Program-made: the position numbers and the translations under genes
Part shown: one piece after another, positions 5,905 through 64,000 of the stretch
Numbering within the stretch: position 1 is the first letter of the stretch
Layout of the letters: every line of letters begins with the position of its first letter
The notes under the pieces: generated by a model
What the model was told of the DNA's origin: nothing
The model's database searches: none
What the model saw: the letters and a program-made list of their open reading frames with translations, nothing else
Assembly: GCA_951406725.2 (NCBI GenBank)
Contig: OX597826.1
Location: 1-64,000 of the forward strand
Reading direction: 5' to 3'
From: Octopus vulgaris
Lineage: Eukaryota
Length of the DNA stretch: 64,000 bases

Positions 5905-6540
5905 CTGAAATGTACCACACACAATAAGTATATCAAAATAGTTTCTAGTATTTTTCCTAGCCCATAATTTATGATAATTGAAGTTCTTACAGTAAATAAA
6001 TACCTACTAAATCAGTAAATCGAACATTACATCCACGTAACTTATCGTTTCTGCAAATGAGACCTATACGTTAAGTAATAGGCATACAAAGAACAATTGC
6101 TGATGTTGATTTGCTTCACTAAAGGCGGTGCTCCACCATGGTCACAGTGAAATAACTGAAAGAGTCTACGAGCGACAAAGTCTATATTACGATAACTACA
6201 TACTTAAGGGAAATAACTACAAAGTATCTTCTACAGTTACTTCCCTTAAGTATTAAAATATAACAATAATAAAAGATTATTTAGGGAAATTAACTCTCGG
6301 AAGGGAGATAACTAGATAACATCTTCCAGAGTTACTTTCCTTACATATAATTATACTACTTTTATTTAAATTATAATACGCAGGGGAAATAACTCTCGAA
6401 AATATTATTCAGACATGACAGACTTTTACGATTTATTGGAGTTTAACTGCTCTCTCTAGTGAGTCGGATGTCCCATTATGGCCATCCCTTATATGTTTAA
6501 ATATCTAAATGTATATACATAAATCTGTCAATATATACCT

Positions 6541-6581
<41 letters not shown>

Positions 6582-9192: not shown

Positions 9193-11083
9193 TATACTGG
9201 AGCGCCGCCTTTAATCGATCACATCGTCCGCAGCACATATTCTTTGTAAGCCTAGTATTTATTCTAACTTATTCTCTTTTGCCGAACCGCTAAAATACAG
9301 GGAGTCAAACACACCTGTATCGGTTAAAAGCATCAACAACTACAGTCAATCGAAGATAATGACCAAACTGTCTACTCTTATCCACCAGTTCCAACACGGT
9401 TTAACCAAAAAGGAGACAAATTGCTTGACTAGATTTGACTGCAAAGCCAGTAACATCTATGGACTTCCCAAAATCTACAAAAGTTAAGCCATAAACAAAA
9501 CCTGTAACAAGTTAACTTCTATAGCCATAAATATTCCACACCCGATAGATCTCCGAATGAGGCCAATTATGGCAAATCCAGGTATGTAGATACGGGGTGA
9601 TTAACACTCGCAAATCTGAAGTCGCTAAAGGTGCAATAAATCGAACTTCTTTTCATTTAGAACTTGGGGATCTGCAAATGTGGGTATCTTAGAGATGTTT
9701 AAAGTGTTTGTTGTAGCTGTAATTGTCGCATACAAACAGACGCTCACACACACGTATACACAGAAATAAAAACATTCACACAAACACAAACACTGAAATG
9801 AAAACAGTTACATACCTACCCATGCACACACACAAACATACGCACCCACACAAACATACGCACCCACACACAGAAATGAAAACGCAGTTACACATTCACA
9901 CATAAAACCCTAACCCTAACTAGCACAAACATACAATTTATTAAGAATGTAAAGGGGCATTGGGTGCTTTGCACTCGCAGTTAGAATATCATCTCCCTCC
10001 ACGCCAGTATGAGAATTTCTTTCGTCCACTTGTGAAATTAATACATTGACGACACATGGGAAAAATATGAACAACATCTCAAGTCACTAAAGGTGCAATA
10101 AATTGAACTTATTTTGATTTAGTAATTTGTGATTTCAAATGTGGGTATCTTAGAAAATGGTCAATGTGTTTGTTGTAGTTGTAAGTGTCGCACACACACA
10201 AACAAATAGAAACACTCAGTCGCTCACACAAACAAATAGAAACACTCTGTGATTTCAAATGTGGGTATCTTAGAAAATGGTCAATGTGTTTGTTGTAGTT
10301 GTAAGTGTCGCACACACACAAACAAATAGAAACACTCAGTCGCTCACACAAACAAATAGAAACACTCAGTCGCTCACACACTCGCGCACACAGAAATAAA
10401 AACACTCACACACAAACACTGAAATGAAAATACCAACACTCACATAAATAAAAACAGTCCCACACACACAAGGAGCCCCAATAGGTCTATCAAAAAAGTT
10501 TCTAGTATTTTTCCTAGCCCATAATTTATGATAATTGAAATTATTACAATAAATAAATACCTACTAAATCAGTACATCGAACATTACGTCCCCGTAACTT
10601 ATCGGTTCTGCAAAATAGACCTATACATTAAGTAATAGGCATACAAAGAACAATTCCTGGGGTTGATTTGCTTGACTAGAGGCGGTGCTCCACCATGGTC
10701 ACAGTGAAATAACTGAAAGAGTCTACGAGCGACAAAGTCTATATTACGATAACTACAAAGTATCTTCTACAGTTACTTCCCTTGAATATTATAAGTTTAC
10801 AATAAAAAGTTAATACGCGGGGCAATTAACTCTCGGAAGGGAGATAACTAGATAACATCTTCCAGAGTTACTTTCCTTACATATAATTATATTACTTTTA
10901 ATAAGTTATAATGAGCAAGAGGAAGTAACTTTCGAATATATTATTCGAACATGACAGACTTTTACGATTTATTGGAGTTTAACTGCTCTCTCTAGTGGGT
11001 CGGATGTCCCATTATGGCCATCCCATATATGTTTAAATATCTATATGTATATACATATATCTGTCAATATATACCTATGTATA

Positions 11084-11132
<49 letters not shown>

Positions 11133-13553: not shown

Positions 13554-14196
13554 CGACATATAAATACACAAACACATACATGTGTGTGTGTGTGTGTATA
13601 TAAAGGTGCAATAAATTGAACTTATTTTGATTTATTATTTAGTGATCTCAAATGTGGGTATCTTACAAATGCTCAAAGTGTTTGTTGTAGTTGTAAGTGT
13701 CGCACACACACAAACAAATAGAAACACTCAGTCGCTCACACACTCGCGCACACAGAAATAAAAACACTCACACACAAACACTGAAATGAAAATACCCACA
13801 CTCACATAAATAAAAACAGTCCCACACACACAAGGAGCCCCAATAGGTCTATCAAAAAAGTTTCTAGTATTTTTCCTAGCCCATAATCTATGATAATTGA
13901 AATTATTACAATAAATAAATACTTACTAAATCAGTACATCGAACATTACGTCCCCGTAACTTATCGGTTCTGCAAAAGAGACCTTTACATTAAGTAATAG
14001 GCATACAAAGAATAATTCCTGGGGTTGATTTGCTTCACTAAAGACGGTGCTCCACCATGTTCACAGTGAAATAACTGAAAGAGTCTAAGAGCGACAAAGT
14101 GTATATTACGATAACTACATACTTAAGGGAGATAACTACAAAGTATCTTCTACAGTTACTTCCCTTGAATATTATAACTTAACAATAAAAAAATAA

Positions 14197-14646
14197 CGTA
14201 AGGGGGATCAGCCATCTGAATGTGGCTTGGGACAGGGCGGGGTGGTGGGGGTGTTACTGATGCTTTTAGCTCCGGGCGATCATCAACGTCACCAGAAGGA
14301 CTGACACCATATAGGTGTCCTCGTTTGCTTGTAAAAGGAGGTTATCCTTCCCCGAAGATACAGATGCTACATACGGACCGGTTTCGAGGTCATTGCCTCT
14401 TATCAACGTATGGTAAGCACCGTTCCTCGATGAAGGATTCCCTCTACAGGCAAAATATATAAGACTTTTCACAGTAACTACAGTCACTGATGTAGAAAAG
14501 CCGTCTGAAAACAATAATAAATCTCTGAACGAGATATAAACAGTAACTGCTCGACAACGTAAGGGGGATCAGCCATCTGAATGTGGCTAGGGACAGGGCG
14601 GGGTGGTGGGGGTGTTACTGATGCTTTTAGCCCCAGGCGATCATCA
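14197..14646 (-). mobile_element. Non-coding retrozyme / Penelope-pLTR-like element A (361-bp monomer plus 92-bp terminal direct repeat)
   Basis: Direct repeat 14195-14286 / 14556-14647 with 3 mismatches; 13-bp TSD AATAAAAAAATAA at 14184-14196 and 14647-14659; absent at the equivalent site of duplicon copies 1 and 2; contains a hammerhead. Confidence 0.82.
14363..14421 (-). ncRNA. Minimal type-I hammerhead ribozyme (U3-A8 core variant)
   Basis: Minus strand reads GGUGC-UUAC-CAUACG UUGAUAA GAGG-CAAUGA-CCUC GAAA CCGG UC^ CGUAUG-UA-GCAUC: perfect stems I and II, palindromic ACCGGU in place of stem III, GUC cleavage triplet. Confidence 0.85.
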
Positions 14647-14931
14647 AATAAAAAAATAATATGCAGGGAAATTAACTCTCGGAAGGGAGATAACTAGATA
14701 ACATCTTCCAGAGTTACTTTCCTTACATATAATTATTTTACTTTTATTAAATTATAATGTGCAAGAGGAAGTAACTCTCAAATATATTATTCAGACATGA
14801 CATAGACTTTTACGATTTTTTGGAGTTTAACTGCTCTCTCTAGTGAGTCGGATGTCCCATTATGGCCATCCCTTATATGTTTAAATATCTATATGTATAT
14901 ACATATATCTGTCAATATATACATATGTGTG

Positions 14932-14994
<63 letters not shown>

Positions 14995-15166: not shown

Positions 15167-15251
<85 letters not shown>

Positions 15252-16078: not shown

Positions 16079-16169
16079 ATTAGCGAAAACCAGTGTATAT
16101 TCTGTTGTGTCTGGGGATAGTCTTTCTCTTTTAGTGCCTTATTATTAAATACACACTCACTAGTAAAAA

Positions 16170-17499: not shown

Positions 17500-20400
17500 G
17501 GCACTAATTTCTTCAGATGATGAAACTCACGGAGAGGATCATAGCCCAACTAATTAGGAAAAGACTTAATCTAGATGAGATGCAATTTGGTTTTGTATCA
17601 GGAAGAAACACCAGTCATGATATATTTCTGGTAAGAAACCCCAGGAGAAGTACCTAACCAAGTATAAACCTATGTACTTGACTTTTGTTGGTATCATAAT
17701 CATTCAGGTAATAACAGATAAATATAAAACAGGCAGACCCTAGCAACTCCTCTATGCTGATTACAGGATTACAACTAAACACACATATATTACAATTTAT
17801 TACATTACATTCAATTCGCCATATATTATTCATTTTATTATCCATCATCTTTCCCTTCACATTTCAGGTATACTGAAGACCCTTTACTCATTGCTTCAGA
17901 CTGCGTAAAATATTGGTGAAAGCAAACAGTTGTCAGACTTATTTATGACAAAAAGCGAGTCAGTATGACCAACGTACCCTGTCCTGCACCTGATTGTGCC
18001 ATGAGTTGGCCTGTAAACAATCCATGGGAGAGAGTACTGACAAGCCTCATCGATCATCTGCAACAATGACACAGAATGTATGCACCTGCCACCTACAACA
18101 AATACAACCCCCTCCTCCAACTACACTACCATTCCCAGCCACTGAGGAAAAACGTTGTCGCCTGAGGAAGTAGCTGCTACAATACTACAGCTCCAGCACA
18201 TTCAACGTCTGCAACCATCGGCAATTCTCTGACCAACCGATTCGCTTAATGCTAAACCAGTCGCCCACACCAGTCCTGGTTCATTGGCAAGAGGAATTAA
18301 AAGCAGGTCTTGACCGGAATGTTCCACTTGGAGTTATAAAGCCTATTCCCATTGGTACATCTGTCACTTGGTGACAGACAATGGTGGTATGTCCTAACAG
18401 GTCTGGAAAACCATCTTAAAGGAGCATCGAATGGTGCACAGGCACTTAACACTGCCCTATCAGCTATGAGCTGACATTGTACCTTCTTCCACAATTGGGG
18501 AGAATCACTGCCATTGCATTTCCCCATGACAACTGCCGAGCCAAAGTCGGTATTGAGACAATAAAGGGCCTCGTTACAGACAACACTGACACCAATGGCT
18601 TCCTTAACACTGACAGTTTCCAGTGAACAATGCTACAATAAAGAAATACACCTGACTGGGACACACACTTGTCCCCAGCCATGTGCATCTTTGGCAGCCC
18701 TATACAATACTTTATTCCCATCCATCCCGGCAAGTACAAGCTACATTCCACATGGCATGAAACTATGACTTATTGAAAAGAAGACCTGCGTAAACACAAC
18801 ATGAGTGCTATTGAACGGTTGTCAAAACACACATGCTCACTTCTTTCGAACTATATCCTAATCCAGAGCCAAGTTTGACCCAATCCTACAAATGGGGGGA
18901 AAACTGGTGCCATTTAGATGTACGTCATTTCGATCTGTACATGTTGAGAGTGGATGGATCAGGCCAAGTCACACTGTGCAACAAAATTCCTCTGGAAGTA
19001 TCTACTGCTTCTTCCCCATGGCCCACTACTCATGGTGTCTGAACCACCTGCATTCTTCACGCCAACACCAGTGATGAGACTACCTTCTCAACCGACTTTA
19101 ACAGCACCTCATGCAGCTGCAACACCAATGCCCACTTCCCGATTCCAAAATTACCATGACCAGAAATGCATCTCACCGCCTACCCACAGAGCCACGCCAA
19201 CTTACCCCACCTTTACCACAAGTGGTCATACCCCAACACCCCTTGAAACCCCTGCTTTCCAAAAGTGACCCTTGCCTGATACAGTTTATCCTCCATCCAG
19301 CAATTGTCCTGTTTGTCGCTCTGCCAGACTCGCAAAGACTGACACAAAAGCCTGATGCACAACTGACACGTTGCTCCTTGATCGTCACACCGTCAATATT
19401 GATTAAGGGTCTCTTGCACTAATTATTATTTTCGTTAATCATTTAATACATATTATTAGTTTTCTTTGCTTCTCTCAAAGGAATTGGGGAGGGCATAGAG
19501 GATGACAACTGAACACTCATATATTATCATTTATTACATTACATTCAATTAGCCATACATTATTAGTTTCATTATCAAAATATTTTCCTTCACGTTTCAG
19601 GTATACCGAGAACCTTTTTTTTCATTGCTTCAATCAGTGTACATAAAGTGTTTGTGAAAGCAAAGAGTTTTCACACTTATTTACTAATGAGCTGCTTCTT
19701 ATAGCTAAATCACTACCAGAACTAGAGAACAAATTTTGCGTACGGAAGCAAGGTCTAGAATTGAAAGGTCACAGAATTAACCTACCCAACCCTAACCCAA
19801 AGTCTTAGTAAGTAGGAAACCAGATAAATCGTAAAGCCCTTCAGGTACATGGCCATCCTCAATATGAAGGAAACAGGTAGGTAGATGTACTCTGTATAAC
19901 ACATAATAGGTGTAGCAATATGAGAGGAAGGTAAACTGGGAAAATATTTTTTGTATGTGGAAGGTGCATAATGTACAGTAAAAACTAAAAATGCACAGAA
20001 AATGGGCTTCATCAAATGCCAGAGGAGTACGTTAGAGATCGTTGAGTAACAAAGTCAGTAGCAGAAGTGGATGAACCAAGAGTGTGGCTGCAAGAATAAA
20101 AATAGGCTGAGCAAATTCAGAGAGCTCCTTCCTCTGTTTGGTAACTAAGGGTCTCTCCTTCAGAGTGAAAGCCAGATTTATTATACCTGTGCAGACAACT
20201 ATGCTACATGGCAGGAGAAGTAGACATAAGGCATTGGACAAGGTGGTAATGCATGATCTTTGACTGTTGGAACTTATAAAGGCAATGACTAATGACTGAC
20301 ACCTTTCATGACATGCTGTGCCTTAGAAGACAATATATTGTAATTAATTTCCCATCAATTAATTTTTTTCACAACCCCTGCCCTCAACACTCATGGAGTG

Positions 20401-25187: not shown

Positions 25188-25639
25188 AGAGAGAGAGAGA
25201 GAGCGAGAGAGAGAAAGAGATGTACTTGCATAGCGAGTGGCAAGGTAACAGTCAAGTATACAAATTGAACTGACACATATTACATAAACATACGTTCGCA
25301 AGTACATACACATGTACACACACAGACACGTCTATTTCTCCTAAATACTCACAAGTACATAAGTACATACATACATGCGTATAGGCATGCGCACATACAT
25401 GTACACATATACATACATACATACGTACGTACATATATATCATGAACTAACTGTTACTTTCTCAGATGCAGCACGGAATTTTGTCAGTGAAGTCGCAGTC
25501 TCAAAACAACGAAAATATTTTGACAAATTAAATTTAAATATTAAAGTGAATCTAACGGTTTTTGTGTGTTTCTTAAATGGCTTATAAACACCTTCCATGC
25601 TGCAATTGTTTTCGTTCCAGTACAGCAAAGTTTACCCTT

Positions 25640-25915
25640 ACTAAATCCAAACTCCTGTCAGCTTTCTCTAATTACACCCAAAGGCATAAACAAAAACGAA
25701 CAAAAAATAAGACCCGTGATCTTGACACCAAAATTAAGAAAGGCCATAACAAATTAAAAAATAGAGAGATTGTATGCTTCTCGACTGACAAATCAGTTAG
25801 AATGTCTGTTGACAACTTATCTAATTACATTTCGAACATGCAACCACACATCACAACAATAACAGAAACAACAACACTCGAGTACATTGAAAACGAAAAA
25901 GTCCTTAATGGGGAT
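25640..25915 (+). pseudogene. Probable Penelope-like element N-terminal ORF fragment
   Basis: KGHNKLKNREIVCFSTDKSVRMSVDNLSNYISNM resembles the Penelope (A/T)DK(G/S) motif upstream of the RT. Confidence 0.5.
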
Positions 25916-26561
25916 GTGGAGTATCATTCTCCAGTCAAATAATAATTTCTTACTTACTTCTTTCACTCTGCAGGACCAATATTCAATAAAAATTTCAATA
26001 AAAAACTGAATCTCGCGCCATTGAAATCATTCAGACGACAATCCCACAATGCTTTGCGAAAAGTCAGACACCAATTTTCAGCCGCCATAGTTCCGTATTT
26101 CCTTGGTGATAAATTAATTTGTAATTCCTTTTTTGTGTCTGCCAAAAATCCCCGTTTTCGGAAAATTGCCAAAAATCGGCATTGTGAAACTTTGTCCCCG
26201 CCTTTCCCCACCCAACTTCTTCAGTTTTGACTTTTTTCCCACATGTTGACTGCGGCTATGCTGGAGCACCGCCTTTAGTCGAAACAAATCGATCCCAGGA
26301 CTTATTCCTTGTAAGCCTAGTACTTATTCCATCGGTCACTTTTTGCCAAGGCGCTCAGCTTCGTTGACATAAACACACCGACATCAGTTGTCAAGCGAAT
26401 GTGGGGGGGGGGTGACTAGCACACACGCACACTCACACATAAAGATTTCCATATAAGAGATTTGACTGCTGTTTCTAGCATATCCAGATTTCACTGCATT
26501 TTTTAGCAGTCCACCCTCCTGGAAAATTAATAAAACCAGTCGTGTGTATGTGTATATATAT

Positions 26562-30135: not shown

Positions 30136-33100
30136 GAATAGAAAAGTGTGAACTGAGGAAGATTTGACTAATATTTCTACAAGTCAAGCAGCTATTTAGA
30201 GGATCTGACATTGTTCCATTAGAATAAAAAAAGTGTGATCTGAGGAAGATTTGACTGCTATTTCTAGCAGGTGAAGCAAATATTTAGAGTATCTGACATT
30301 AGTCCATTAGAATAGAAAACTCTGATCCCAGGAGGATTTGACTGCTATTTCTAGCAAGTCAAGCAAATATTTAGAGGTTCTGACATTGGTTCATTAGAAT
30401 AAAAAAAGTGGGATCTGAGGAAGATTTGATTGCTATTTCTAGCAGTTAAGCAATGATTTAATTGATCGGACATTGTTCCATTAGAATAGAAGAGTGTGAT
30501 CTGAAGGAGATTTGACTGCTATTTCTAGAACGTCAAGCAACTATTTAGAGGATCTAACATTGGTACCTTAGAATAGAAAAGTGTGATCTGAGGAAGATTT
30601 GACTGCTATTTCTAGCAAGTCAAGCAACTATTTTGAGGATCTGACATTAGTCCATTAGAATAGAAAAGCGTGAGCTGAGGAAGATTTGACTGCAATTTCT
30701 CGCAAGTCAAGCAACTATTTACAGGATCTGAAATTGGTCCACTAGTATAGAAAAGTGTGATCTGAAGGAGATTTGTCTGCTATTTCTAGCAAGTCAAGCA
30801 ACTATTTAGAGAATCTGACATTGTGCCTTTAGAATAGAAAAGTGTGATCTGAGGAAGGTTTGATTGCTATTTCTGGCAAATCAAGCAACTTATTCAGAGG
30901 ATAATAACATTGGTCAAATTAGTATAGAAAAGTATGATCTGATGGAGATGTGACTGCTATTTCTAGCAAGTCAAGCATCTATTATTAGGATTTGACATTG
31001 TTCCAATAGAATAGTAAAGTGTGAGCTGAGGAAGATTTCACTGCTACTTCTAGCAAGTAAATCAATTAGCATGAGCTGAGGAAGATTTGACTGTTATTTT
31101 TAGCAAGTCAAGAAACTTTAGAGGTTCTGACATTGGTCCATGAGAATAGAAAAGTGTGATCTGATTAAGATTTGACTGCTATTTCTATCAAGTCAAGAAA
31201 CTATTTAGAGAATTTGACATGTTCCGTTAGAATAGAAAAGTGTGATCTGATTAAGATTTGACAGTTATTTCTAGCAAGTCAAGCAAGTATTTAGAGGATG
31301 TGACATTGGTCAATTAGAATAGAAAAATGTGATCTGAGGAAGTATAGGCTGCTATTTCTATCAAGTTAAGCAAATATTTAGAGGATCTAACATTGGTCTA
31401 TTAGAATGGAAAAGTGTAATCTCAGGAAGATTTGTCTGCTCTTTCTAGCAAGTCAAGCACTATTAAGAGCATCTGACATTGGTCCATTAGAAGAGAAAAG
31501 TGTCATCTGAGGGAGATTTGACTGTTATTTCTACCAAGTCAAGCAACTATTTAGAAGATCTGAGATTGGTCCTTTAGAGCATCTGACATTGGTCTATTAA
31601 ATAGAAAAGTGTGATCTGAGGAAGATTTGTCTCCTCTTTCTAGCAAGTCAAGCAACTATTAAGATCATTTGACATTTGTCCATTAGAATAGAAAAGTTTG
31701 ATCTGAGGAAGATTTTATAGATATTTCTAGCAAGTCAAGGAACTATTTAGAGGATCTGACATTGTTCCATTAGAAAAGAAACGAGTGATCTGAGGAACAT
31801 TTGATGGCTATTTCTAGCAAATCAAGCTTTTATTTAGACGATCTGACATTCTTTCATTAGAATAGAAAAGTGTTGTCTGAGGTAGATTTGACTGCTACAT
31901 CTTGCAAAGAAAGCACATATTTAGAGGATCTGACATTTGTCGATTAGAATAGAAAATTGTGATCTGAGGGAGATTTGACAGCTATTTCTATCAAGTCTAG
32001 CAATTATTTTGAGGTCTTGACATTGTTCCATTAGAATAGAAACGTGTAATCTGAGTAAGATTTGATTGCTATTTCTAGCAAGTCAAGCTTTTATTTAGAC
32101 GATCTGACATTGTTCCATTAGAATAGAAAAGTATGATCTAGGGAAGACTTGACTGCTATTTCTAGCAAGTGAAGCAACTATTTAGAGGATCTGATATTGT
32201 TCTATAAGAATAGAAAAGTGTGATAATACGGAGATTTGACTAATATTTCTAGCAAGTCAAGGAACTATTTAGAGGATCTGACATTAGTCATTAGAATAGA
32301 AAAGCGTGAGCTGAGGAAGATTTGACTGTTATTTTTAGCAAGTTAAGAAACTATTTAGAGGCTCTGATATTGGTCCATGAGAATAGAAAAGTGTGATCTG
32401 ATTAAGATTTGACTGCTATTTCTAGCAAGTCAAGCAACTATTTAGAGGATTTGACATTGTTCCATTGGAATAGAAAAGTGTGATCTGAGAAAGATTTGAC
32501 TGTTATTTCTAGCAAATCAAGCAAGTATTTAGAGGATCTGATATTGGTTCATTAGAATAGAAAAATGTGATCTTAAGAAGGTTGACTTCTATTTTTTGCA
32601 AATCAAGCAACTATTTAGAGGTTGTGACAATGGCCCATAAGAATAGAAAAGTTTGATCCAAAGGAAGTTTTGACTGCTCTTTCTAGCAAGTGAAGGAACT
32701 ATTTAGAGAATCTGTCATTGGTCTTTTAGAATAGAAAAGTGTGATCTGAGGAAGATTTGTCTCCTCTTTCTAGAAAGTCAAGCAACTATTAAGAGCATGT
32801 GACATTGGTCATTAGAATAGAAATGTGTGATCTGAGGGAGATTTGACTGCTATTTCTAGCAAGTCAAGCTTTTATTTAGATGATCTGACATTGTTCCATT
32901 AGAATAGAAAAGTGTGATCTCAGGAAGATTTGACAGCTATATCTACCAAGGAAAGCAACTATTTAGATGATCTGACATTGGTCAATTAGTATAGAAAATT
33001 GTGATCTGAGGGAGATTCGACTGCTAATTCTAGCATGTCAAGCAACTATTTAGAGATCTTGACATTGTTCCATTAGAATAGAAGAGTGTAATCTGAGGAA

Positions 33101-34720
33101 GATTTGATTTCTACTTCTAGCAAGTGAAGCAAGGATTTAGAGGATCTGATGTTGTTCCATTAGAATAGAAAATTGTGATAATACGGAGATTTGACTACTA
33201 TTTCTATCAAGTCAAAGATCTATTTAGAGGATCTGACATTGGTCCATTAGAATAGAAAAGCGTGAGCTGAGGAAGATTTGCCTGTTATTTTTAGCAAGTT
33301 AAGGAACTATTTAGAGGCTCTGATATTGGTCCATGAGAATAGAAAAGTGTGATCTGATTATGATTTGACTACTATTTCTAGCAAGTCAAGCAACTATTTA
33401 GAGGATTTGACATTGTTCCATTGGAATAGAAAAGTGTGATCTGAGGAAGATTTGTCTCCTCTTTCTAGCAACTCAAGCAACTTTTAAGATCATCTGACAT
33501 TTGTTGATTAGAATGGAAAAGTTTGATCTGAGGAAGATTTTATAGATATATCTAGCAAGTCAAGGAACTATTTAGAGGATCTGACATTGTTCCATTAGAA
33601 AAGAAACGAGTGATCTGAGGAACATTTGATGGCTATTTCTAGCAAGTCAAGCTTTTATTTAGACGATCTGACATTCTTCCATTAGAGTAGAAAAGTGTGA
33701 TCTGAGGAAGGTTTCACTGCTATTTTTAGCAAGTCAAGCAACTATTTAGAGTAACTGGCATTGATCCATTAATACAGAAAAGTGTGATCTAAGGGAGATT
33801 TGACTGTTATTTCTAGCAAGTGAAGCTAATATTTAGAGGATTTGATATTGTTCCATTAAAATAGAAAAGTCTGATATAAGGAAGGTTTGACTCCTATTTC
33901 TGTCAAGTCTAGCAACTATTTAGAGGATCTGACATTGTTCAATTAGAATAGAAAAGTGTGATCTGATGAAGATTTGACTACTATTTCTAGCAAGTCTAGT
34001 AACTATTTAGAGGATCTGACATTGGTCCATTAGAGTAGAAAAGAGTGATATGATGAAGATTTGACAGCTATTTCTAGCAAGTCAAGCTTTTATTTAGACG
34101 ATCTGACATTCTCTCATTAGAATAGAAAAGTGTGGTCTGAGGAAGATTTGACTGCTACATCTTGCAAGGAAAGCAAATATTTAGAGGATCTGACATTTGT
34201 CGATTAGAATAGAAAATTGTGATCTGAAGGAGATTTGACTGCTATTTCTATCAAGTCTAGCAACTATTTAGATATCTTGACATTGTTCCATTAGAATAGA
34301 AAAGAGTAAGATTTGATTGCTATTTCTAGCAAGTCAAGCATCTATTATTAGGATCTGACATTGTTCTATTAAAATAGAAAAGTGTGATCTAAGGAAGACT
34401 TGACTGTTATTTCTAGCAAGTCAAGCTTTTATTTAGACGATCTGACATTGTTCCATTAGAATAAAAAAGTGTAATCTGATGAAGATTTGATCGCCATTTC
34501 TTGCAAGTGAAGCAACTATTTAGAGGATCTGATATTGGTCCATTAGAATAGAAAAGTGTGATCTTATAAAGGTTGACTGCTATTTCTTGCAAATCAAGCA
34601 ACTATTTAGAGGTCATGACAATGGTCCATAAGAATAGAAAAGTTTGATCGAAAGGAAATTTTGACTGCTCTTTCTAGCAAGTGATGGAACTATTTAGAGA
34701 ATCTGTCATTGGTCTTTTAG

Positions 34721-35118
34721 TTAGTTAGTTAGTTAATTTTTTGGCTCAAATAGCAAAAAGCAAGGCCATGTAGGGGGACAAGGAGTTATGTACAGGGTGG
34801 TGTTCATGTAAAGAGTTCAGGCCACTTGAGGTCAAGGGAGACTTTGAACCGAGCAGTCATCGGCATCTTCACCATCTCATCTGGCAGCTTATTCCACTGA
34901 TCCGCAACCCGGACGGAGAAAGCCCCTCTCCTTCAATTGAGATGAAATCGTCGCAGATAGAGCTTTTCGGAATGACCCCACGGCCGATGCTCTGGAGCAG
35001 GAGTGAAGAACAGCTCTTTCGAGAGGTTACACTTTCCGCTTATGATGTTGTGAGCAAGAATGAGATCTCCACGGCATTGTCATTTTTCTAGAGAATAAAG
35101 GTCGAGCGTCTTCAGCCT
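34721..35118 (-). mobile_element. Short 5'-truncated CR1 copy inserted in the satellite (same family as 12513-13518)
   Basis: Reverse complement of ~13119-13518 including the (TAAC)n tail; TTTAG at both junctions. Confidence 0.92.
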
Positions 35119-36540
35119 TTAGAATAAAAAAGTGTGATCTGAGGAAGATTTGTCTCCTCTTTCTAGAAATTCAAACAACTATTAAGAGCATGTGACATTG
35201 GTCATTAGAATAGAAATGTGTGATCTGAGGGAGATTTGACTGCTATTTCTAGCAAGTCAAGGAACTATTTAGAGGATCTCACATTGGTCTATTAGAATAG
35301 AAAAATGTCATCTAAAGGAAGTTTTGACTGCTATTTCTAGCAAAGCAAGCAACTATTTAGAGGATCTGACATTGGTCTATTAGAATAGAAAAGTGTGATC
35401 TGAGGAAGATTTGTCTCCTCTTTCTAGCAAGTCAAGCAACTATTAAGAGCATCTGACATTGGTCCATTAGAATAGAAAAGTGTGATATAAGGAAGATTTT
35501 CCTGTCAATTATAGCAAGTCAAGCAACTATTTAGAAGATCTTATATTGGTGCATTAGAATAGAAAAGTCTGATCTGAGGAAGATTTGATTGCTATTTCTA
35601 GCAACTCTAGCAACTATTTAGAATGTCTGACATTGTTCCATTAGAATAGAAGCGAGTGATGTGAGGAACATTTGATTGCTATTTCTCGCAATTGCAGCTT
35701 TAATTTAGAGGATCTGACATTGGTCTATTTGAATAGAAATGTGTGATCTGAGGGATATTTGACTGCTATTTCTTGCCAGACAACCAACTATTTAGAGGAT
35801 CTGACATTGGGCGACTAGTATAGAAAATTGTGATCTGAGGGAGATTTGACTGCTATTTCTAGCAAGTCTAGCAACTGTTTAGATGATCTGATATTGGTCC
35901 ATTAGAATAGAAAAGTGTGATCTGAAGGAGATTTGTCTGCTATTTTTAGAAAGTCAAGCAGCTATTTAGAGGATCTGACATTGTTCCATTAGGATAGTAA
36001 AGTGATCTGAGGAAGGTTTGATTGCTATTTCTAGCAAGTGAAGCAACTTATTTTGAGGATCTGACATTGGTCCATTAGTATAGAAACGTTTGATCTGATG
36101 GAGATTTGTCTGTTATTTTTTGCAAGTCAAGAAACTATTTAGAGGTTCTGACATTGTTCCATTAGAATCGAAGAATGTAATCTGAGGAGGATGTGATTTC
36201 TATTTCTAGCCAGTCAAGCAACTATTTAGAGGATCTGATATTGTTCTATTAGAATAAAAAAGTGTGATAATACTGAGATTTGACTACTATTACTAGTAAG
36301 TCAAGGATCTATTTAGAGGAGCTGACATTGGTCCATTAGAATAGAAAAACATGAGCTGGGGAAGATTTGACTGTTATTTTTAGGAAGTCAAGAAACTATT
36401 TAGAGGTTCTGACATCAGTCCATGAGAATAGAAAAGTGTGCTCTGATTAAGATTTGACTGCTATTTCTAGCAAGTCAAGCAACTATTTAGAGGATTTGAC
36501 ATTGTTCCATTAGAGTAGAAAAGTGTGATCAGAGGAACAT

Positions 36541-41652: not shown

Positions 41653-42214
41653 TATGTCTGTGTTTGTCCCCAAGCATCGCTTTACAACTGATGCTAGTCT
41701 GTTTACGTCCCCGTGACTTAGAGTTTCAGCGAAAGAGACCGATAAATAATTACTATGCCTACAAAGAATAAGTCCTGGGGTCGATATGTTCGACTAAATG
41801 TGGTGCTGCAGCATGGCCACAGTCAAATTACTGAAACGAGTAAATGAGAGTAAAAGAGTATATAGCGACAAAAGTCTATGACCTGTTCACTAGGGAGATA
41901 GCTGAAAATATCTCCTAAGAGTTACTTCCCTAACATATAATACGTTTCATGCAATTTCTGTAATAGGTGTGTTTGTTTTTCGCTTGCGAAAGGGGACACG
42001 AGCATGCGCGCACGTACAGACACACATACACATGCAAGTAATCTGCTGGTACCTTTAACAAATAAACATTGACTAGCTCATCATTTACATTTCATTACGC
42101 CCCACAAATATATAAAGTAATGATATTATCTAGTACTACCCTTCGGACATAATCAAGTTTCTTTTTTGTTTTAGATAGTATATATGCGTGTGTGGGTATA
42201 TACACGTATATCTG

Positions 42215-46231: not shown

Positions 46232-47522
46232 CGAGGGGCGTTCAATAAGTAATGCCCCTGGCCCACTTCCCATAGCAGTAGAGCAACGAAACTTGGCACA
46301 GTTATTAGTCTTTTTCTACATAGGAACCACCCAGAGTTACGCATTTCTTCCATCGTTTGATGCAGCTCTGAAGACCATTTTTGTAGAAGACCCCAGCTTT
46401 GTCCTCCAACCACGACGTGACTTCAGAAATCAAGGCTGCATCATCTGGGAAACGCTTTCCTTTCAAAAACAACTTCATGGCTGGGAAGAGGTGAAAATCA
46501 GAGGGTGCAAGGTCAGGAGAGTAGGGAGAATGGGGGATGAGTTCATAGCCGCACGCCTGTACTTCTGATCTGGCGACACACGAGTTGTGGACCGGAGCGT
46601 TGTCCTGCAGGAGGAGGATGCCTTTGCTGATCTTGCCCCGCCTCTTGATTTTGATAGCTTCTCTTAATTTCCTCAAAAGTGAAGCATAATAGACTCCTGT
46701 AATTGTGGTACCCTTTGCCAGGAAATCTGTCATCACTACTCCGTCCTGGTCCCAGAAGACTGTGAGCCTGACCTTGTCAGCGGAGGGCTGCACCCTTGCC
46801 TTCTTTGGAGGAGGTGAGTCACGGTGCTTCCACTGCATTGACTGGGCTTTGGACTCTGGATCATAGTGATGAACCCAGGTTTCATCCTGTGTAATCAGTC
46901 TTTTGAAAAATTTTGACTCATCTTCTTGGCACATCTCCAAATTCACCCTCGAGCAATCGACACGTTCTTGCTTCTGGAAAGGTGTGAGCAACCTGGGAAT
47001 CCATCTGGCAGACACCTTTTTCATATGCAAATGGTCATGAATGATAGTTTCCATAGACCCGGTACTAATCTTGACCTGATGGGCTATTTGGCGAATAGTT
47101 ATGCGTCGATCTTCCAAAATGGCAGCCTCAACTTGACAGACAGATGCCTCATCAATGGCAGAAGGCGGCGACCAGATCTGGGAGCTGTTTCCACAGAGTT
47201 CCGACCATGTTTGAATTCACGATGCCAGCGTTTTACAAGGTCATATGATGGGGCATCATCACCATAAGTTACTTTCATTTCATCAAAAGTCTCCTGTGGT
47301 GTGCGTCCTTTCAAATACAAAAACCGAATCACTGCTCGGCACTCAACAGGCTCCATTTCACACTTGACTCGGTTCAAACACCTGTAAATCAGAAAACACA
47401 ATTAGTTCAGAGCTGTAATTTGCCACTTAATCTATAGAGATATAAATAATTGCACAGGCAAAATTTTAGCTAGATCAAACAACTGCAAGTGGGTCAGAGG
47501 TATTACTTATTGAACGCCCCTC

Positions 47523-51009: not shown

Positions 51010-51604
51010 CAGAAATACATGCATTCATACATATACACGTGTATATACCCACATACGCATATATACTATCTAAAACAAAATAAAAACCCGATCATGTCCA
51101 AAGGGTAGTACTAGATATGGTGAGTACTTTACATAGTTTTCGGGTGTAATTAAATGTAAATTATAATGTTTATTTGTTAAAGTTAACAACAGAAAATTTG
51201 CATGTGTATGTTTGTATCTTCCTGCGCGAATGCAAATGTGCCCTTCGCATGGGAAATATAAACGCATCTACATCTTAAACTGTCATGTCTTTTATTAATA
51301 TGTCAAGGGAAGTAACTCTAAAAGTTGATTTTCAGTTATCTCCCTTATTGATGTAGTTCAGAGAATATAAACTTTTCTGGTTATTTTCTATTTTACACAC
51401 TTAATTTTTCAATTATTTGACTGCGGCCATGGTGGAGCAATGCCTTTATTCGTGCAAATCGACCCCAGGACTTATACTTTGTAGGCCTAGTATTTAAACT
51501 ATCGGTCCCTTTTCCCGAACCGCTAAGTTCGGGGAATTGTACACACCAGCACCCGTTGTCCAACGATGTTCGAGAAATAAACAGACATTACAAACACACA
51601 CACT

Positions 51605-55443: not shown

Positions 55444-56739
55444 CGGGGGGAGTAGCATGCCTACCAGCCACACGGTTCCAGGTGCAGTCCCACTGCGTGG
55501 CGCCTTAGACAAGTGTTTTCTTCTATCGTCTTGGGCCGACTAAATCTTTCGAAGTCCACAGTAACGTCTGTGGACTTCCGAAAATCCACAAAAGTGAGGC
55601 CATAAACGAAGCCTGTAACAAGTCAACTTCTATAGTCATAGATATTCCACACCCGAGAGTTCTCCAAATGAAACCAATTATGACCGATCCAGGTACGTAG
55701 ATACGGGGTCATTGTGTACTTAGCACCTGCAGATAGAATATCAGCCCCCTCCACGCCAGTATGAGAATTTGTTTTATCCACTTGTGAAATAATACGTTGT
55801 CACCATATGAGAAAAATATGTGCAATATTTTAAGTCGCTAAAGATCCAATAAATTGTGATTTCTTTTGATTTAGTAGTTAGTGATCTGCAAATGTGGGTA
55901 TCTTAGAGATGCTTAAAGTGTTTGTTGTAGCTGTAATTGTCGCACACACACAAAAAAATAAAAACACAGTCGCTCACACACACGTACACACAGAAATAAA
56001 AACATTCACACAAACACAAACACTGAAATGAAAATACCAACACACACTTTCACACACACAAATAAAAACAGTCCCACGCACACAAACACTGAAAAAAAAT
56101 TCTCACACATACACACACTCACATACGCACAAACACACACACAGAAATGAAAATACACAGCTACATATTCACACAAACACGCGGACAAACACTGAAATGA
56201 AAACAGTTACATACCTACACATGCACAAACACACAGACACACACAAATAGAAATGAAAAATACACAGTTACACATCCAAACTCTCACACACTCACACACA
56301 CACACACACACACACAGAAATGAAAATAGTAACACACAAACATACGCACCCACACACAGAAATGAAAACACAGTTACACACTCACACATAAAACCCTAAC
56401 CTTAACTAGCACAAACATACAAGTTATTCAGAATGTAAATGGGCATTGGGTGCTTTGCACTCGCAGTTAGAATATCAGCCCCCTCCACACCATTATGAGA
56501 ATTTCTTTCATCCACTTGTGAAATTAATACATTGTAGACACATGGGAAAAATTTGAGCAACATCTGAAGTCACTAAAGGTGCAATAAATTGAACTTATTT
56601 TGATTTAGTAGTTAGTGATCTCAAATGTGGGTATCTTAGCAATGGTCAAAGTGTTTGTTGTAGTTGTAAGTGTCGCACACACACAAACAAATAGAAACAC
56701 TCAGTCGCTCACACACTCGCGCACACAGAAATAAAAACA

Positions 56740-56776
<37 letters not shown>

Positions 56777-57167
56777 AAATGAAAATACCCACACTCACAT
56801 AAATAAAAATAGTCCCACACACACAAGGATCCCCAATAGGTATATCAAAAAAGTTTCTAGTATTTTTCCTAGCCCATAATTTATGATAATTGAAGTTCTT
56901 ACAATAAATAAATACCTACTAAATCAGTATATCGAACATTACGTCCCCGTAACTTATCGGTTCTGCAAAAGAGACCTATACATTAAGTAATAGGCATACA
57001 AAGAATAATTCCTGGGGTTGATTTGCTTGACTAAAGGCGGTGCTCCACTATGGTCACAGTGAAATAACAGAAAGAGTCTAACAGCGACAAAGTGTATATT
57101 ACGATAACTACAAAGTATCTTCTACAGTTACTTCACTTGAATATTATAATTTAACAATAATAAAATT

Positions 57168-57603
57168 ATAATTAAATCTCAGAATGAGATTGAAACAGTA
57201 ATCGCTCGATAATGTAAAGTATAGAAGCCATCTTATCATGGCTAACCACATTGGGGAGGGGGTGTTACTGTAGCTTTATAGCCCCAAGAGATCTTCGTCT
57301 CTAGCTGGCCTTAGACACAATATCAGTGTCCTTGGAGTATTTGCAAAGGGAGGCCATCCCTTCCTCGCAAGCCTGAGTGATACGCTCGAACTAGTTTCGG
57401 GATTGTTGTCCCTCGTCAACGGGCGGTAACCACCAGGTAGCGATGAAAGTGAAGGCTGCTTTGCAAACATATATAAGTTTTTCTAATGGCGTCTGCCACT
57501 GATGTCGAAAAACGAACAGTAAGCATAATTAAATCTCAGAATGAGATTGAAACAGTAATCGCTCGATAATGTAAAGTATAGAAGCCATCTTATCATGGCT
57601 AAC
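57168..57603 (-). mobile_element. Non-coding retrozyme / Penelope-pLTR-like element B (357-bp monomer plus 79-bp identical terminal direct repeat)
   Basis: Direct repeat 57168-57246 / 57525-57603; motif-for-motif homology to element A with a different start point; contains a hammerhead. Confidence 0.8.
57372..57437 (-). ncRNA. Minimal type-I hammerhead ribozyme (U3.G8 core variant)
   Basis: Minus strand reads CCUGGUGG-UUAC-CGCCCG UUGACGA GGGA-CAACAA-UCCC GAAA CUAG UU^ CGAGCG-UA-UCACUCAGG; palindromic ACUAGU; one C-A mismatch in stem I; GUU triplet. Confidence 0.78.
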
Positions 57604-58088
57604 TCGTAGCTATTTATGTTTTACACATGTTGACCTTAAAACCGTGACATTCTGTGTCTGTTTGCGCGCGCATTTCTGTGAGAATGATTGCTCACGAACC
57701 GCAATGTGCTGAGTTCAAACCAACAGCGTTGCACCTTCGGCAAGTGTATTCAACTATAGCCTAGGCCAAGGGCCGACCAAAGTATTCTGAATGGAGTTGG
57801 TAGAGGGAAACTGAAAGAAGCCCGTCGTATATGTGAATATCGGCGTAGGAATGGCTACGTTGTAAGTAGTGTGCTTGCGAACCACATGGTTTCGGGTTCA
57901 TTCCCACTGCCTGTAATCTTCTGCAATTGTCTACTATTGTTGCCCAGGGCCGAGCTAATCCTTGCGATTGGATTTAGTGGAAGGAAACTGAAAGAATCCC
58001 GTCGTATATATGTTTAAATGTGTGTGTGTCTGTGTATGTTTGTTCGCACTCGAAGGGCACACGAGAATGCACGCACGTACTATCACAC

Positions 58089-59047
58089 ATAAGAATAGCT
58101 TGGGCAAAGTACAGAGAGCTCTTACCTCTGCTGGTGACAAAAGGCCTCTCGCTCAGAGTAAAAGGCAGACTGCATGACGCGTGTGTACGAACAGCCATGC
58201 TACATGGCAGTGAAACATGGGCCGTGACTGCTGAGGATATGCGTAAGCTCGCAAGAAATGAAGCCAGTATGCTCCGATGGATGTGTAATGTCAGTGTTCA
58301 TAATCGACAGAGTGTAAGTACTTTGAGAGAAAAGTTGGACCTAAGAAGCATCAGATGTGGTGTGCAAGAGAGACGTTTGCGCTGGTATGGACATGTGGCG
58401 AGAATGGATGAAGATAGTTGTGTGAAAAAGTGCCACACCCTAGCGGTTGAGGGAACCTGTGGAAGAGGCAGACCCAGGAAAACCTGGGACGAGGTGGTGA
58501 AGAACGACCTTCGAATTTTAGGTCTCACCGAGGAAATGACTAGAGACCGAGACCTCTGGAAGTATGCTGTGCGTGAGAAGACCCGGCAGGACAAGTGAGA
58601 CCATAACCGTATGTAGCCAGTCCACTTATGCATACCTTCCCTTCTTGGGACACAAAACTCTACTTGTGAAGACCTGTTGAGGCAAGTGAAAATCAGAATC
58701 GAAATCGATCAATGGAAATTGCAGTTGAGTTATCAGTGCCGGTGGCACGTAAGAGAACCATCCGAACGTGGCTGTTGCCAGCGCCGCCCCGACTGGCCTC
58801 GTGCCGGTGGCACATAAAAAGCACCATCCGATCGTGGCCGTTTGCCAGACTCGTCTGGCACCTGTGCCGGTGGCACGTAAAAAGTACCCACTACACCCAT
58901 GGAGTGGTTGGCGTTAGGAAGGGCATCCAGCTGTAGAAACATTGCCAGATCAAACTGGGCCTGGTGCAGCCTTCTGGCTTCCCAGACCCCAGTTGAACCG
59001 TCCAACCCATGCTAGCATGGAAAGCGGACGCTAAACGATGATGATGA

Positions 59048-59164: not shown

Positions 59165-60008
59165 TTGAGCACCGTCTTTAGTCAAGCAAAAGGACTTATT
59201 CTTTGGAAGCTTAGTACCTATTCTAACTTTTTCTATTTTGCCGAACCGTTACGTTACGTATGTGTGGAGTGTGCTCAAACACGCACAAACACTCATACGT
59301 CCGAACACACACACAGATACATGCAAAGATGCACACTTGTAGGTATTTATGCTTTAAATATGTTGACCTTAAAACCGTGACATTCTGAAGAAATTGTGTG
59401 TGTGTGTGTGAGTGAGTGTTTGCAAGTGCGTTTTCATTTCTAGGTGTGTGAGTTTGTAAATGTGTTTTCATTTCTGTGTGTGAGTGTGTATGACTAATAA
59501 AAATAAGAAATAAGTGGAAATGTTTACCCTTGAGTGTGTTAAATAATAAGGCACTAAACGAGAATGACTCTCCCCAGACACAACAGAATATGCTTCAACA
59601 CACGAACTCATATAAAGAATCTTGCAAACCAAATCCAAAAACGAAATATAGTGTTTATTCAGTTGACAAATTTAAGGGAGATAACTGGAAAATGTCTTCT
59701 AGAGTTACTTCCCTTGAATATTATACGAAAGACTTGTTTCATTCTTTTGACTGTGCCCATGCTTGAGCAACACATTTTATCGAGCAAATCGACCCCAGGA
59801 CTTATTCTTTGGAAGCTTAATATTTATTCTATCGGTCTCCTTTACCGAACCGCTAAGTTTTGGTGACGTATACACACCTGCATTGGTTATCAAGATGTAC
59901 TGTGAATGATGATTAACAACAGAAGAACGAATTACATGATGCTTTCCGTGGTTATATTTTTCCTATGGTAGTAGGAGATGAGACATGATCGCACAAGGCA
60001 TTAACCTT

Positions 60009-63000
60009 AGCCCTCATCCCTGCTTTTCTATGCTAAACCCGATATAAAACAGTGATCTACACTCGAAATAAACCTGTTCAATTTCTACCCTCCTCATCAC
60101 CCCAAATCCTAACCCCCAGTTCAAACTTTGATCTCTTACCTGACTATTCTCTCTAAAAACCCTTCACAAACCCCCAAGCTGACCCTAATATAGACTAAAC
60201 TCTGAAAACCAATCCTAACAGCAAACCCACACCAAAATAAGAAAAACCACTTACCTTTGGCCATTTGGGATCTATAATACAAGGCATGATATGCAAACAA
60301 CAAGCAAAATATCAACCAACATTTGAAAGTCAAGTTTTATCTATGTGTCGAATCATGAAATACACTTGTTTAATAAATACAGTTGTCCTTACATTTACAC
60401 AGTACATTGCTTCCACAAGTCATCAAACTAATCATTCAAATGCGAAATCAATTGTTTTTATTTATAAATAGAAACAAATTAATTATTGAAATTAATATAA
60501 GAAATACAATTAACGTGTATGTGTGTCATCATCATTTAACATTCGTTTTTCATGTTGTCATGGGTTGGACTATTTCACACTATCTGAGATGAATTACTAC
60601 ACGCACATTTAATGTCTGTTTTCACATGGTTTCTATGTCTGAGAAAAGTTTTGGTAACACTAACACAAGTAAAATTAATAAGTAAATTTCAAGGATGAGT
60701 GGATTGCTAGTAGTGAGAGAGGTGGCTTCATCATAACCTGTAGTATAATAGAGAGACAGACAGAGGTGTGTTGCTGTAGAGAAAGTACATGGCTACCCTG
60801 CATATATGTATGTATATAGGTAGACATCGATTAGAGCGCTTTCTCATTGCTAATATGTTAACATATGCTTGATGTGTGCTTTAAAAATAAAGTGCTCGCA
60901 CTGGCACTAATTTCTTCAGATGATGAAAATCACGGAGAGGATCATAGCCCAACTAATTAGGAAAAGACTTAATCTAGATGAGATGCAATTTGGTTTTGTA
61001 TCAGGAAGAAACACCAGTCATGATATATTTCTGGTAAGAAACCCCCAGGAGAAGTACCTAACCAAGTATAAACCTCTGTACTTGACTTTTGTTGGTATCA
61101 TAATCATTCAGGTAATAACAGATGAATATAAAACAGGCAGACCCTAGCAACTCCTCTATGCTGATTACAGGATTACAACTAAACACACATATATTACAAT
61201 TTATTACATTACATTCAATTCACCATATATTATTCATTTTATTATCCATCATCTTTCCCTTCACATTTCAGGTATACTGAAGACCCTTTATTCATTGCTT
61301 CAGACTGCGTAAAATATTGGTGAAAGCAAACAGTTGTCAGACTTATTTATGACAAAAAGCGAGTCAGTATGACCAACGTACCCTGTCCTGCACCTGATTG
61401 TGCCATGAGTTGGCCTGTAAACAATCCATGGGAGAGAGTACTGACAAGCCTCATAGATCATCTGCAAAGATGACACAGAATGTATGCACCTGCCACTTAC
61501 AACAAATACAACCTCCTCCTCCAACTACACTACCATTCCCAGCCACTGAGGAAAAACGTTTTCGCCTGAGGAAGTAGCTGCTACAATACTACAGCTCCAG
61601 CACATTCAACATCTGCAACCATCGGCAATTCTCCAAGATGTCTGACCAACCGATCCGCTTAATGCTAAACCAGTCGCCCACCATACGCCCATACCAGTCC
61701 TGGTTCATTGGCAAGAGGAAGTAAAAGCAGGTCTCGACCGGAACGTTCCACTTGGAGTTATAAAGCCTATCCCCATTGGTACATCTGTCACTTGGTGACA
61801 GACAATGGTGGTATGTCCTAACAGGTCTGGAAAACTATCTTAAAGGAGCATCGAATGGCACACAGGCACTTAACACTGCCCTATCAGCTATGAGCTGACA
61901 TTGTACCTTCTTCCACAATTGGGGAGAATCACCGCCATTGCATTTCCCCATGACAACTGCCGCGCCAAAGTCGGTATTGAGACAATAAAGTGCCTCGTTA
62001 CAGACAACACAGACACCAATGGCTTCCTTAACACTGACAGTTTCCAGTGCACAATGCTACAATAAAGAAATACACTTGACCGGGGGACACACTTGTCCCC
62101 AGCCATGTGCATCTTTGGCAGCCCTATACAATACTTTATTCCCATCCATCCCGGCAAGTACAAGCTACATTCCACATGGCATGAAACTATGACTTATTGA
62201 AAAGAAGACCTGCGTAAACACAACATGAATGCTACTGAACGGTTGTCAAAACACACATGCTCACTTATTTCGAACTATGTCCTAATCCAGAGCCAAGTTT
62301 GACCCAATCCTACAAATGGCGGGGGGGGGGGACTGGTGCCATTTCGATGTACGTCATTTCGATCCGTACATGTTGAGAGTGGATGGATCAGGCCGAGTAA
62401 CACTGTGCAACAAAATTCCTCTGGAAGTATCTACTGCTTCTTCCCCACGCCCCACTGCTCATGGTGTCTGAACCACCTGCGTTCTTCACGCCAACACCAG
62501 TGATGAGACTACCTTCTCAACCGACTTTAACAGCACCTCATGCAGCTGCAACACCAATGCCCACTTCACGACTCCAAAATTACCATGACCAGAAATGCAT
62601 CTCACCGCCTACCCACAGAGCCACACCAACAAGTGGTCATACCCCAACACCCCTTGAAACCCCTGCTTTCCAAAAGTGATCCTTGCCTGATGCAGTTTAT
62701 CCTCCATCCAGCAATTGTCCTGTTTGTCGCTCTGCCAGACTCGCAAAGACTGGCACAAAAGTCTGACGCACAACTGACACGTTGCTCCTTGATCGTCACA
62801 CCGTCAATATTGATTAAGGGTCTTTTGCACAAATTTTTATTTTCGTTAATCATTTAATACATATTATTAGTCTTCTTTGCTTCTTTCAAAGGAATTGGGG
62901 AGGGCATAGAGGATGACAACTGAACACTCATATATTATCATTTATTACATTACATTCAATTAGCCATACATTATTCGTTTCATTATCCAAATATTTTCCT

Positions 63001-64000
63001 TCACGTTTCAGGTATGCCGAGGACCTTTGTTTTCATTGCTTCAATCTGTGTACATAAAGTGTTTGTGAAAGCAAAGAGTTTTCACACTTATTTACTAATG
63101 AGCTTCTTCTTATAGCTAAATCACTACCAGAACTAGAATAAATTTTGCGTACGGAAGCAAGGTCTAGAATTGAAAGGTCACAGAATTAACCTACCCAACC
63201 CTAACCCAAAGTCTTAGTAAGTAGGAAACCAGATAAATCGTAAAGCCCTTCAGGTACATGGCCATCCTCAATATGAAGGAAACAGGTAGGTAGATGTACT
63301 CTGTATAACACATAATAGGTGTAGCAATATGAGAGGAAGGTAAACTGGGAAAATATTTTTTGTATGTGGAAGGTGCATAATGTACAGTAAAAACTAAAAA
63401 TGCACAGAAAATGGGCTTCATCAAATGCCAGAGGAGTACGTTAGAGATCGTTGAGCAACAAAGTCAGTAGCAGAAGTGGATGAACCAAGAGTGTAGATGC
63501 AAGAATAAAAATAGGCTGAGCAAATTCAGAGAGCTCCTTCCTCTGTTTGGTAACTAAGGGTCTCTCCTTCAGAGTGAAAGCCAGATTTATTATACCTGTG
63601 CAGACAACTATGCTACATGGCAGGAGAAGTAAACATAAGAAGGCATTGGACAAGGTGGTAATGCATGATCTTTGACTGTTGAAACTTATAAAGGCAATGA
63701 CTAATGACCGACACCTTTCATGACATGCCGTGCCTTAGAAGACAATATTATTGTAATTAATTTTCCATCAATTAATTTTTTTCACAACCCCTGCCCACAA
63801 CACTGATGGAGTGCTTCATATTAAGAAGAACATCCAGCCATAGAAACAATGACAAATCAGACTGGAGTCTGCTGCAGACCCTCAGCTTACCAGCCCTGAT
63901 GAAACTGTCCAACACATGCCAGCATGGATAATGGACATTAAGTGATGATGATGATGATGATGATGACAATTCTTTTTGTAAAACTTTTGCGTTTTATGCT
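60009..64000 (+). repeat. Segmental duplication copy 2 including the RTE and Gypsy relics; runs off the window end
   Basis: Collinear near-identity with 16605-20582 with small indels. Confidence 0.95.

Follow-up and report, generated by a model that had tools for sequence, protein, structure and literature searches.

The window analysed here is a 64,000-nucleotide stretch of Octopus vulgaris DNA (assembly GCA_951406725.2, contig OX597826.1, positions 1 to 64,000 of the forward strand). At its left end 225 copies of a CTGGC-type 5-mer occupy positions 1-1142, distal to a degenerate CCCTAA tract of 45 copies at 1170-1437. CCCTAA tracts are reportedly miscalled as CCCTGG by nanopore basecallers (Tan et al., bioRxiv 2022.01.11.475254), and the arrangement at 1-1437 is probably a true telomere that nanopore sequencing has miscalled; failing that, the 5-mers would be a variant terminal satellite. 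Judged by the CCCTAA tract, the left end of the window is probably a chromosome end, and the same 45 copies support the subtelomeric setting given to the repeats in a preliminary description of this DNA.

The window holds four paralogous repeat copies, here called c1 to c4 from left to right (Table 1), each with an inverted-repeat (foldback) module containing AT-rich spacers. The first spacer is empty in c1 (anchor at 6232) and c2 (anchor at 10768), as the preliminary description had it; that of c3 holds an element, A, and that of c4 holds another, B. Both flank strings quoted in that description are present, at 14151-14196 before A and at 57123-57167 before B, and the two elements do follow the same AT-rich spacer, starting 46 nt (A) and 45 nt (B) past a shared anchor. 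Elsewhere in the window there is a second segmental duplication (16605-20187 and 60009-63596, blocks 90-99% identical), a G-skewed region of degenerate dispersed direct repeats (30650-36520, matches of about 50-225 bp at 85-94%), and an open frame of 303 aa at 46305-47216 on the minus strand, which by its motifs appears to resemble a mariner transposase. One ORF of the window matches a hypothetical protein of Octopus vulgaris at 75%.

Table 1. Repeat copies, modules, elements and junctions in the window
Feature	Position	Strand	Basis
Empty foldback module, c1	6200..6405	.	DNA fold, z -6.5
Empty foldback module, c2	10740..10940	.	DNA fold, z -4.5
TSD of A, 13 bp, left copy	14184..14196	+	exact match to 14647-14659
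Element A, 361-bp monomer plus ~90-bp terminal direct repeat	14197..14646	-	blastn, 89/92 identity
Type I hammerhead of A (predicted)	14360..14425	-	descriptor scan, fold
TSD of A, 13 bp, right copy	14647..14659	+	exact match to 14184-14196
Paralogous repeat copy 4 (c4)	55822..58091	+	blastn blocks, 86-97%
Counterparts of c4	about 4984-7737, 10249-12248, 13601-15518		blastn blocks, 86-97%
Left arm and AT-rich spacer of foldback module in c4, target of B	57123..57167	+	
Element B, 357-bp monomer plus 79-bp terminal direct repeat	57168..57603	-	blastn, 79/79 identity
45-nt extension of B past the register where A begins	57168..57212	-	alignment
Type I hammerhead of B (predicted)	57367..57437	-	descriptor scan; Rfam RF02275
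Right junction of B, 3-nt microhomology to flank 960-980 bp past the empty site	57601..57603	+	

Element A has a GC content of 46.3%, and its longest frame is 100 aa. Its terminal direct repeats (14195-14286 and 14556-14647) differ at three of 92 positions, and it is bordered by an exact target-site duplication (TSD). The hammerhead has the core variant U3-A8, a 6-bp stem I, a 4-bp stem II and a palindromic stem III, with a cut predicted after GUC at 14376. Rfam gave no hammerhead match for A.

Element B (GC 44.8%, no ORF longer than 68 aa from stop to stop) has terminal direct repeats at 57168-57246 and 57525-57603 that are identical throughout. Its hammerhead has the core variant U3-G8, a 4-bp stem II and a palindromic 2-bp stem III, with a cut predicted after GUU at 57389; it matches Rfam RF02275 (HH9) at E=6.7e-6 with 31.2 bits, below the gathering cut-off of 52. 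The c4 target into which B is inserted has 28 A/T among its last 30 nt. B has no TSD, and the flank deletion of about 1 kb that had been described as joined to it is real, with a length of 978 bp when c1 is the reference and 961 bp when it is c2, and 3 nt of microhomology lie at the joint. The left junction can be placed only to within about 5 nt, since B opens with AT-rich bases and has lost the target sequence on its right, and among the 32 contig matches listed from four sequencing runs none bridges 57167/57168. The extension of B past the register of A appears to resemble the optional "tail" described for Penelope-like elements (PLEs; PMC11167929, PMC3846280). A TATA-like run is common to A (about 14455-14462) and B (57470-57477) on the minus strand, about 50 nt upstream of the hammerhead core, and could possibly be a promoter, by analogy with rotifer pLTRs.

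A relaxed hammerhead scan of the window, which gave 1 match in 20 control sequences, returned exactly two motifs, both on the minus strand and one in each element. The two hammerhead elements of the preliminary description are thus present, although "different" applies only in the sense of diverged: they are two subfamilies of one family rather than unrelated elements. Both motifs have the type I core boxes, stems I, II and III and a UH triplet; the stem II changes between them are compensatory, and at the 3-8 core pair A has U-A, where B has a U-G wobble. The U3-A8 variant has been reported for Schistosoma PLEs, and a stem III of two pairs closed by a palindrome is thought to need a dimer (PMC4209133). 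We regard both as predicted self-cleaving ribozymes; among predicted frog retrozymes, eight of nine did not cleave in vitro (preprint 10.64898/2026.07.22.740005). With U at core position 3, neither motif was picked up by a plus-strand scan for the canonical CUGANGA. Rfam at the gathering threshold gave no match in the window, and at E<=1 over the whole window it gave, as a hammerhead, that of B only, the other matches being mostly microsatellite-driven miRNA matches. No shuffle out of 100 folded as well as the minus-strand monomer of either element (z -3.3 and -3.6), and compensatory changes between A and B account for 12 of the 68 consensus pairs. This conserved RNA fold with its compensatory pairs suggests that the A/B divergence arose in active lineages and not by decay in place.

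Codon periodicity was found in neither element, and neither nhmmer nor a covariance model found a third family copy in the window. Pattern scans gave no match to the element motifs in viral and metagenome contigs and none to the foldback module in metagenome contigs. The units (361 and 357 bp, GC 46% and 45%, non-coding, with a type I hammerhead) have the make-up of the metazoan non-LTR retrozymes described by Cervera and de la Pena 2020 (PMC7229834), which Li, Clavereau and Pollet 2026 (10.64898/2026.07.22.740005) derive from PLE terminal repeats. As described there, such retrozymes have a non-coding unit of 150-450 bp with GC <50%, a head-to-tail wrap, a type I hammerhead with a short palindromic helix III and a TSD of >4 bp when one is present, as the 13 bp at A; their RNA is expressed as linear and circular monomers. 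Unlike the tandem "active" retrozymes, which Li et al. define by at least two consecutive hammerhead-bearing units, A and B each span about 1.2 units with one hammerhead, whose core is U3-A8 or U3-G8; because of this we call them retrozyme-type monomer copies and not active retrozymes.

The elements also share features with endonuclease-bearing (EN+) PLEs and solo pLTRs, represented by Poseidon PAc (PMC11167929), the Adineta Penelopes (PMC3846280) and the Hydra clade (PMC8557442): AT-rich targets, a variable TSD or a microhomology 5' junction, an optional tail from two RT starts and a TATA-like run upstream of the hammerhead; A also shares its U3-A8 core with the Schistosoma PLEs. Unlike autonomous EN+ PLEs, A and B have no ORF bearing RT and GIY-YIG endonuclease, and their RT starts would be separated from the predicted cut by 179 and 221 nt. 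On these grounds A and B may be described as an octopus non-coding hammerhead repeat, either of retrozyme type or from a PLE terminal repeat, possibly a solo terminal repeat.

Structure and junctions of A and B can be read directly from the window, and so can the independence of their insertion, which had been proposed in the preliminary description. The monomers are identical at 230 of 351 aligned positions (65.5%) and differ at 121 (34.5%), whereas the left flanks of c3 and c4 are identical at 297 of 312 (95.2%) and differ at 15 (5%), so that the elements are indeed far more diverged than their flanks (Fisher p 3e-23). The terminal repeats, near-identical within each element, are alike between elements at only 20/33 positions. 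The start registers lie 45 nt apart in the unit, B being the earlier, and the TSD of A adjoins A's own start. Nor is c4 closer to c3 than to the other copies: on the left it matches c2 and c3 equally (297/312 each), on the right it matches c2 at 98/101 and c3 at 95/101, and it has a 21-bp deletion in common with c2 and, with c1, three sites and the form of the spacer. With informative sites split 3:3:1, a four-copy tree gave no resolution, and from these comparisons c4 does not appear to be the sister of c3. Independent insertion of A and B is well supported.

Two histories with fewer, or different, insertions have to be set against this. One ancestral insertion might have been duplicated with its repeat and then have diverged or been converted by a distant family member; the common site, orientation and family of A and B agree with it, but the excess of element over flank differences, the near-identical terminal repeats of each element, the compensatory changes, the register gap and the position of A's TSD at its own start largely refute it, and we rejected it as very improbable; B-like contigs at 85-99% identity are moreover present in the sequencing runs, although separate A and B subfamilies at >90% identity to each element would be needed to close the case. 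Alternatively, c4 may once have held A, copy 3 having been duplicated, with B then hitting the left border of A and the deletion erasing A. Any trace of A would fall in the deleted interval, three of the seven informative left-flank sites are common to c3 and c4, and nicking in an element's own pLTR or elsewhere has been proposed (PMC11167929); this nested event is nevertheless improbable, given that on the left c4 is equally near to c2 and c3, that on the right it is nearer to c2, that it shares its 21-bp deletion with c2 and its spacer form with c1, and that it retains A residue at neither junction of B.

The reading that we prefer, with a probability of about 0.62, is that A and B are two subfamilies, each separately inserted by target-primed reverse transcription with PLE enzymes acting in trans, that the shared site comes of chance and of the attraction of the whole class to very AT-rich DNA, here in a multi-copy target, and that the family is mostly inserted outside the module. 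The insertion enzyme, the RNA intermediate and the order of the steps are what we infer. An autonomous PLE would supply RT and GIY-YIG endonuclease in trans, and the enzyme would nick the plus strand where the AT-rich spacer ends. Reverse transcription would start at the shared left junction, because the RNA lies on the minus strand, and copying would begin at one of two points 45 nt apart, pass round a tandem or circular RNA and stop after about 1.2 units. At A a second, staggered nick 13 nt to the left would give the 13-bp TSD; at B, joining through 3 nt of microhomology about 970 bp downstream would give the deletion, which could also have occurred later.

Precedents have been reported. The anole PLE protein PAc cuts AT-rich DNA with a preference for ATT, and its RT sets out from two adjacent internal sites, which define the optional tail (PMC11167929); rotifer PLEs insert into AT-rich DNA with 8-10-bp TSDs or with TSD-less microhomology 5' junctions, and show a 31-bp tail (PMC3846280); and (TA)n is the favoured target of Hydra and Naiad PLEs (PMC8557442). 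The TSD and microhomology anatomy of A and B matches PLE target-primed insertion of a retrozyme-type RNA. No autonomous element with an A/B terminal repeat was found in the window. A tblastn search of the window with 29 PLE-like proteins gave no match in A or B and matched only at 16145-16717 and 25592-25991. Decayed PLE-like coding fragments lie there, an endonuclease region at 16166-16609 (+) and an N-terminal RT region at 25592-25991 (+), with Hydra-clade-like relatives; both are outside the module and without a link to A or B. Full-length relatives of these fragments show, by eye, RT, C-terminal GIY-YIG-like, RWK and DKS motifs, and Pfam gave a weak RT match in one of six.

Only two family members are present in the window; they share one orientation, and their positions in the paralogous copies agree to about 1 nt. 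With a tolerance of +/-3 nt at three paralogous sites in one orientation, a uniform null gives such a coincidence a probability of 1.7e-4. The targets of A and B hold 27-28 A/T in 30 nt, and nulls restricted to AT-rich targets at five thresholds give 0.2-0.7% with microsatellites and 0.4-5.7% without them, looser AT nulls giving 0.2-0.4%. At 27/30 A/T there are 52 non-microsatellite islands on both strands, of which four are the first spacer in this orientation and five more are other module spacers; 21 of 628 AT-rich positions correspond to a 3.3% chance of a shared site. The AT threshold giving 3-6% was chosen after the sites had been seen and leans towards chance, and the A/B pair was itself picked post hoc from a very large scan. 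The coincidence is therefore suggestive rather than decisive, and the known AT-rich preference is sufficient to explain it, though maybe incompletely; a finer, hairpin-linked preference may exist.

Contigs of four sequencing runs (X1, X2, X3 and X6) were placed on positions 56840-57900 at 85% likeness, a cut-off that misses diverged module relatives (copies at 77-89% are present in the window). Against the mean of two module bins, the B-family signal (median over the eight bins of the element) was higher by factors of 13.4 (X1), 3.6 (X2), 18.5 (X3) and 12.0 (X6), where summed contig depth is no copy number and tandem arrays may inflate it; the lowest element bin still reached 1.6-5.0 times the module signal. 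Contig depth falls from left to right across B, which could reflect 5' truncation or subfamily divergence, and high-copy SINEs lie at both ends of the interval. One contig, record 27 of X6, carries a B-family copy aligned to 57208-57309 and, beyond the end of that copy near 57208, about 220 nt of flank that does not match the module; it is the only piece informative for the left flank among the 32 matches listed, and its source, organism C, may be another species. Among the 15 joints listed, none links the module to the element interior. Three listed pieces have right-side overhangs, which do not bear on the module, since its right arm is absent from 56840-57900. On site specificity, the observations comprise two of two window copies in the module, an element signal of 3.6-18.5 times that of the module and one flank outside it. 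A strict specificity for the module is unlikely, because the element signal exceeds that of the module and the X6 contig has a non-module flank. The target preference implied in the preliminary description is accordingly supported for AT-rich DNA, at the level already known for the class, rather than for the GTTACTTCCC module itself, for which n=2, the null is 0.2-6% post hoc, the B-family signal is the greater in all four runs and equally AT-rich hairpin spacers are unhit.

The modules themselves fold strongly, with z from -4.5 to -12.9. When modelled as an empty site, the c3 target takes the form of a hairpin (z -3.6, 1/200 shuffles), and the TSD of A spans its loop and the first 4 nt of its 3' arm; the empty first spacers of c1 and c2 fold poorly (z -1.4 and -0.3). 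The second spacers of c1, c2 and c3 (z -3.1 to -4.2) and that of the telomere-adjacent module (z -6.4) fold as well or better and are unhit. The telomere-adjacent module is a near-perfect 280-bp foldback (1435-1720; -62 kcal/mol, z -12.9) that directly adjoins the telomeric tract. An AT-rich segment of A (14510-14521) matches the c1/c4 spacer exactly over 12 nt, at the register where B begins; such a match occurred in 4 and 11 per 1000 shuffles and, over 16 tests, is not significant after correction, and mimicry of the element's own AT-rich segment by the spacer is a weak lead. Single-hairpin relatives of the module occur at 4342, 41892-41941, 51296-51346 and 59674-59725, each after SINE-like sequence, which makes the hairpin part of a more widespread family of dispersed repeats. 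That these truncated relatives are break scars was considered and rejected, several of them running on into common downstream sequence.

Two other accounts give the module itself a part in the shared site. A PLE endonuclease might read the GTTACTTCCC arm and spacer, or the loop/stem boundary of a hairpin, in a fixed register, and so draw several subfamilies to one subtelomeric repeat, as the single register and orientation of both window copies and the placing of the c3 TSD at the loop/3'-arm boundary could suggest. Two site-specific spike-moss PLE families in 28S rDNA, inserted 4 bp apart (PMC8557442), offer a parallel, and the 12-nt match in A falls at the register of B's start, with the statistical caveat given above. 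Yet the element exceeds the module in signal in all four runs even at the minimum bin, the one informative contig has a non-module left flank, no listed joint links module to element interior and four better-folding spacers were left unhit, so that we think such homing unlikely, if worth keeping in mind. The more particular version, in which subfamilies 35% diverged share a register through an endonuclease reading the loop-stem boundary of a subtelomeric AT-loop module, and structure would guide the family to a safe site, we likewise hold to be doubtful. Quite improbable is the further possibility that the host makes the break, the AT-loop inverted repeat extruding, breaking and capturing retrozyme cDNA without any element endonuclease, with the deletion at B as its scar. 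The strong folding of the modules, the TSD-less microhomology junction of B with its loss of about 970 bp, and the contact between a module and the telomeric tract at 1435 are what such a hotspot would lead one to expect; but the clean 13-bp TSD of A is a mark of staggered nicking, both inserts have the same polarity and left register, no other repeat class was seen in the spacers viewed, and microhomology junctions without TSD are reported for ordinary PLE insertions (PMC3846280). We thus return to AT-directed target-primed insertion, with chance, as the preferred account of the shared site.

Among known systems, the nearest to a shared site of this kind are the site-specific and telomeric PLEs, namely, the spike-moss PLE-X in 28S rDNA and the telomere-attached Athena and Coprina (PMC8557442). 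As there, two related families, here A and B, have inserted almost at one nucleotide of a multi-copy target, and the setting is subtelomeric. Those PLEs, however, lack an endonuclease or use conserved rDNA or telomeric overhangs, whereas the target of A and B is a poorly conserved AT spacer; and unlike the telomere-attached PLEs, A and B have no telomeric repeats, and their family appears more abundant than its target. The element class and the AT-rich preference are both known, and a new targeting system is not yet indicated. In the literature searched, which leaves most subscription papers outside, we found no report of octopus or cephalopod retrozymes and none of recurrent same-site retrozyme insertion.

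A and B show cleanly, in a natural setting, how PLE-type insertion can recur at one target with two outcomes, a TSD and a deletion, and they constitute a retrozyme-type family in octopus, where our literature search found none described. Same-site insertions such as these can be homoplastic markers. If homing to the module were true, the module would be a defined natural substrate for the poorly understood PLE GIY-YIG endonuclease, with a recognition rule that would be directly testable.
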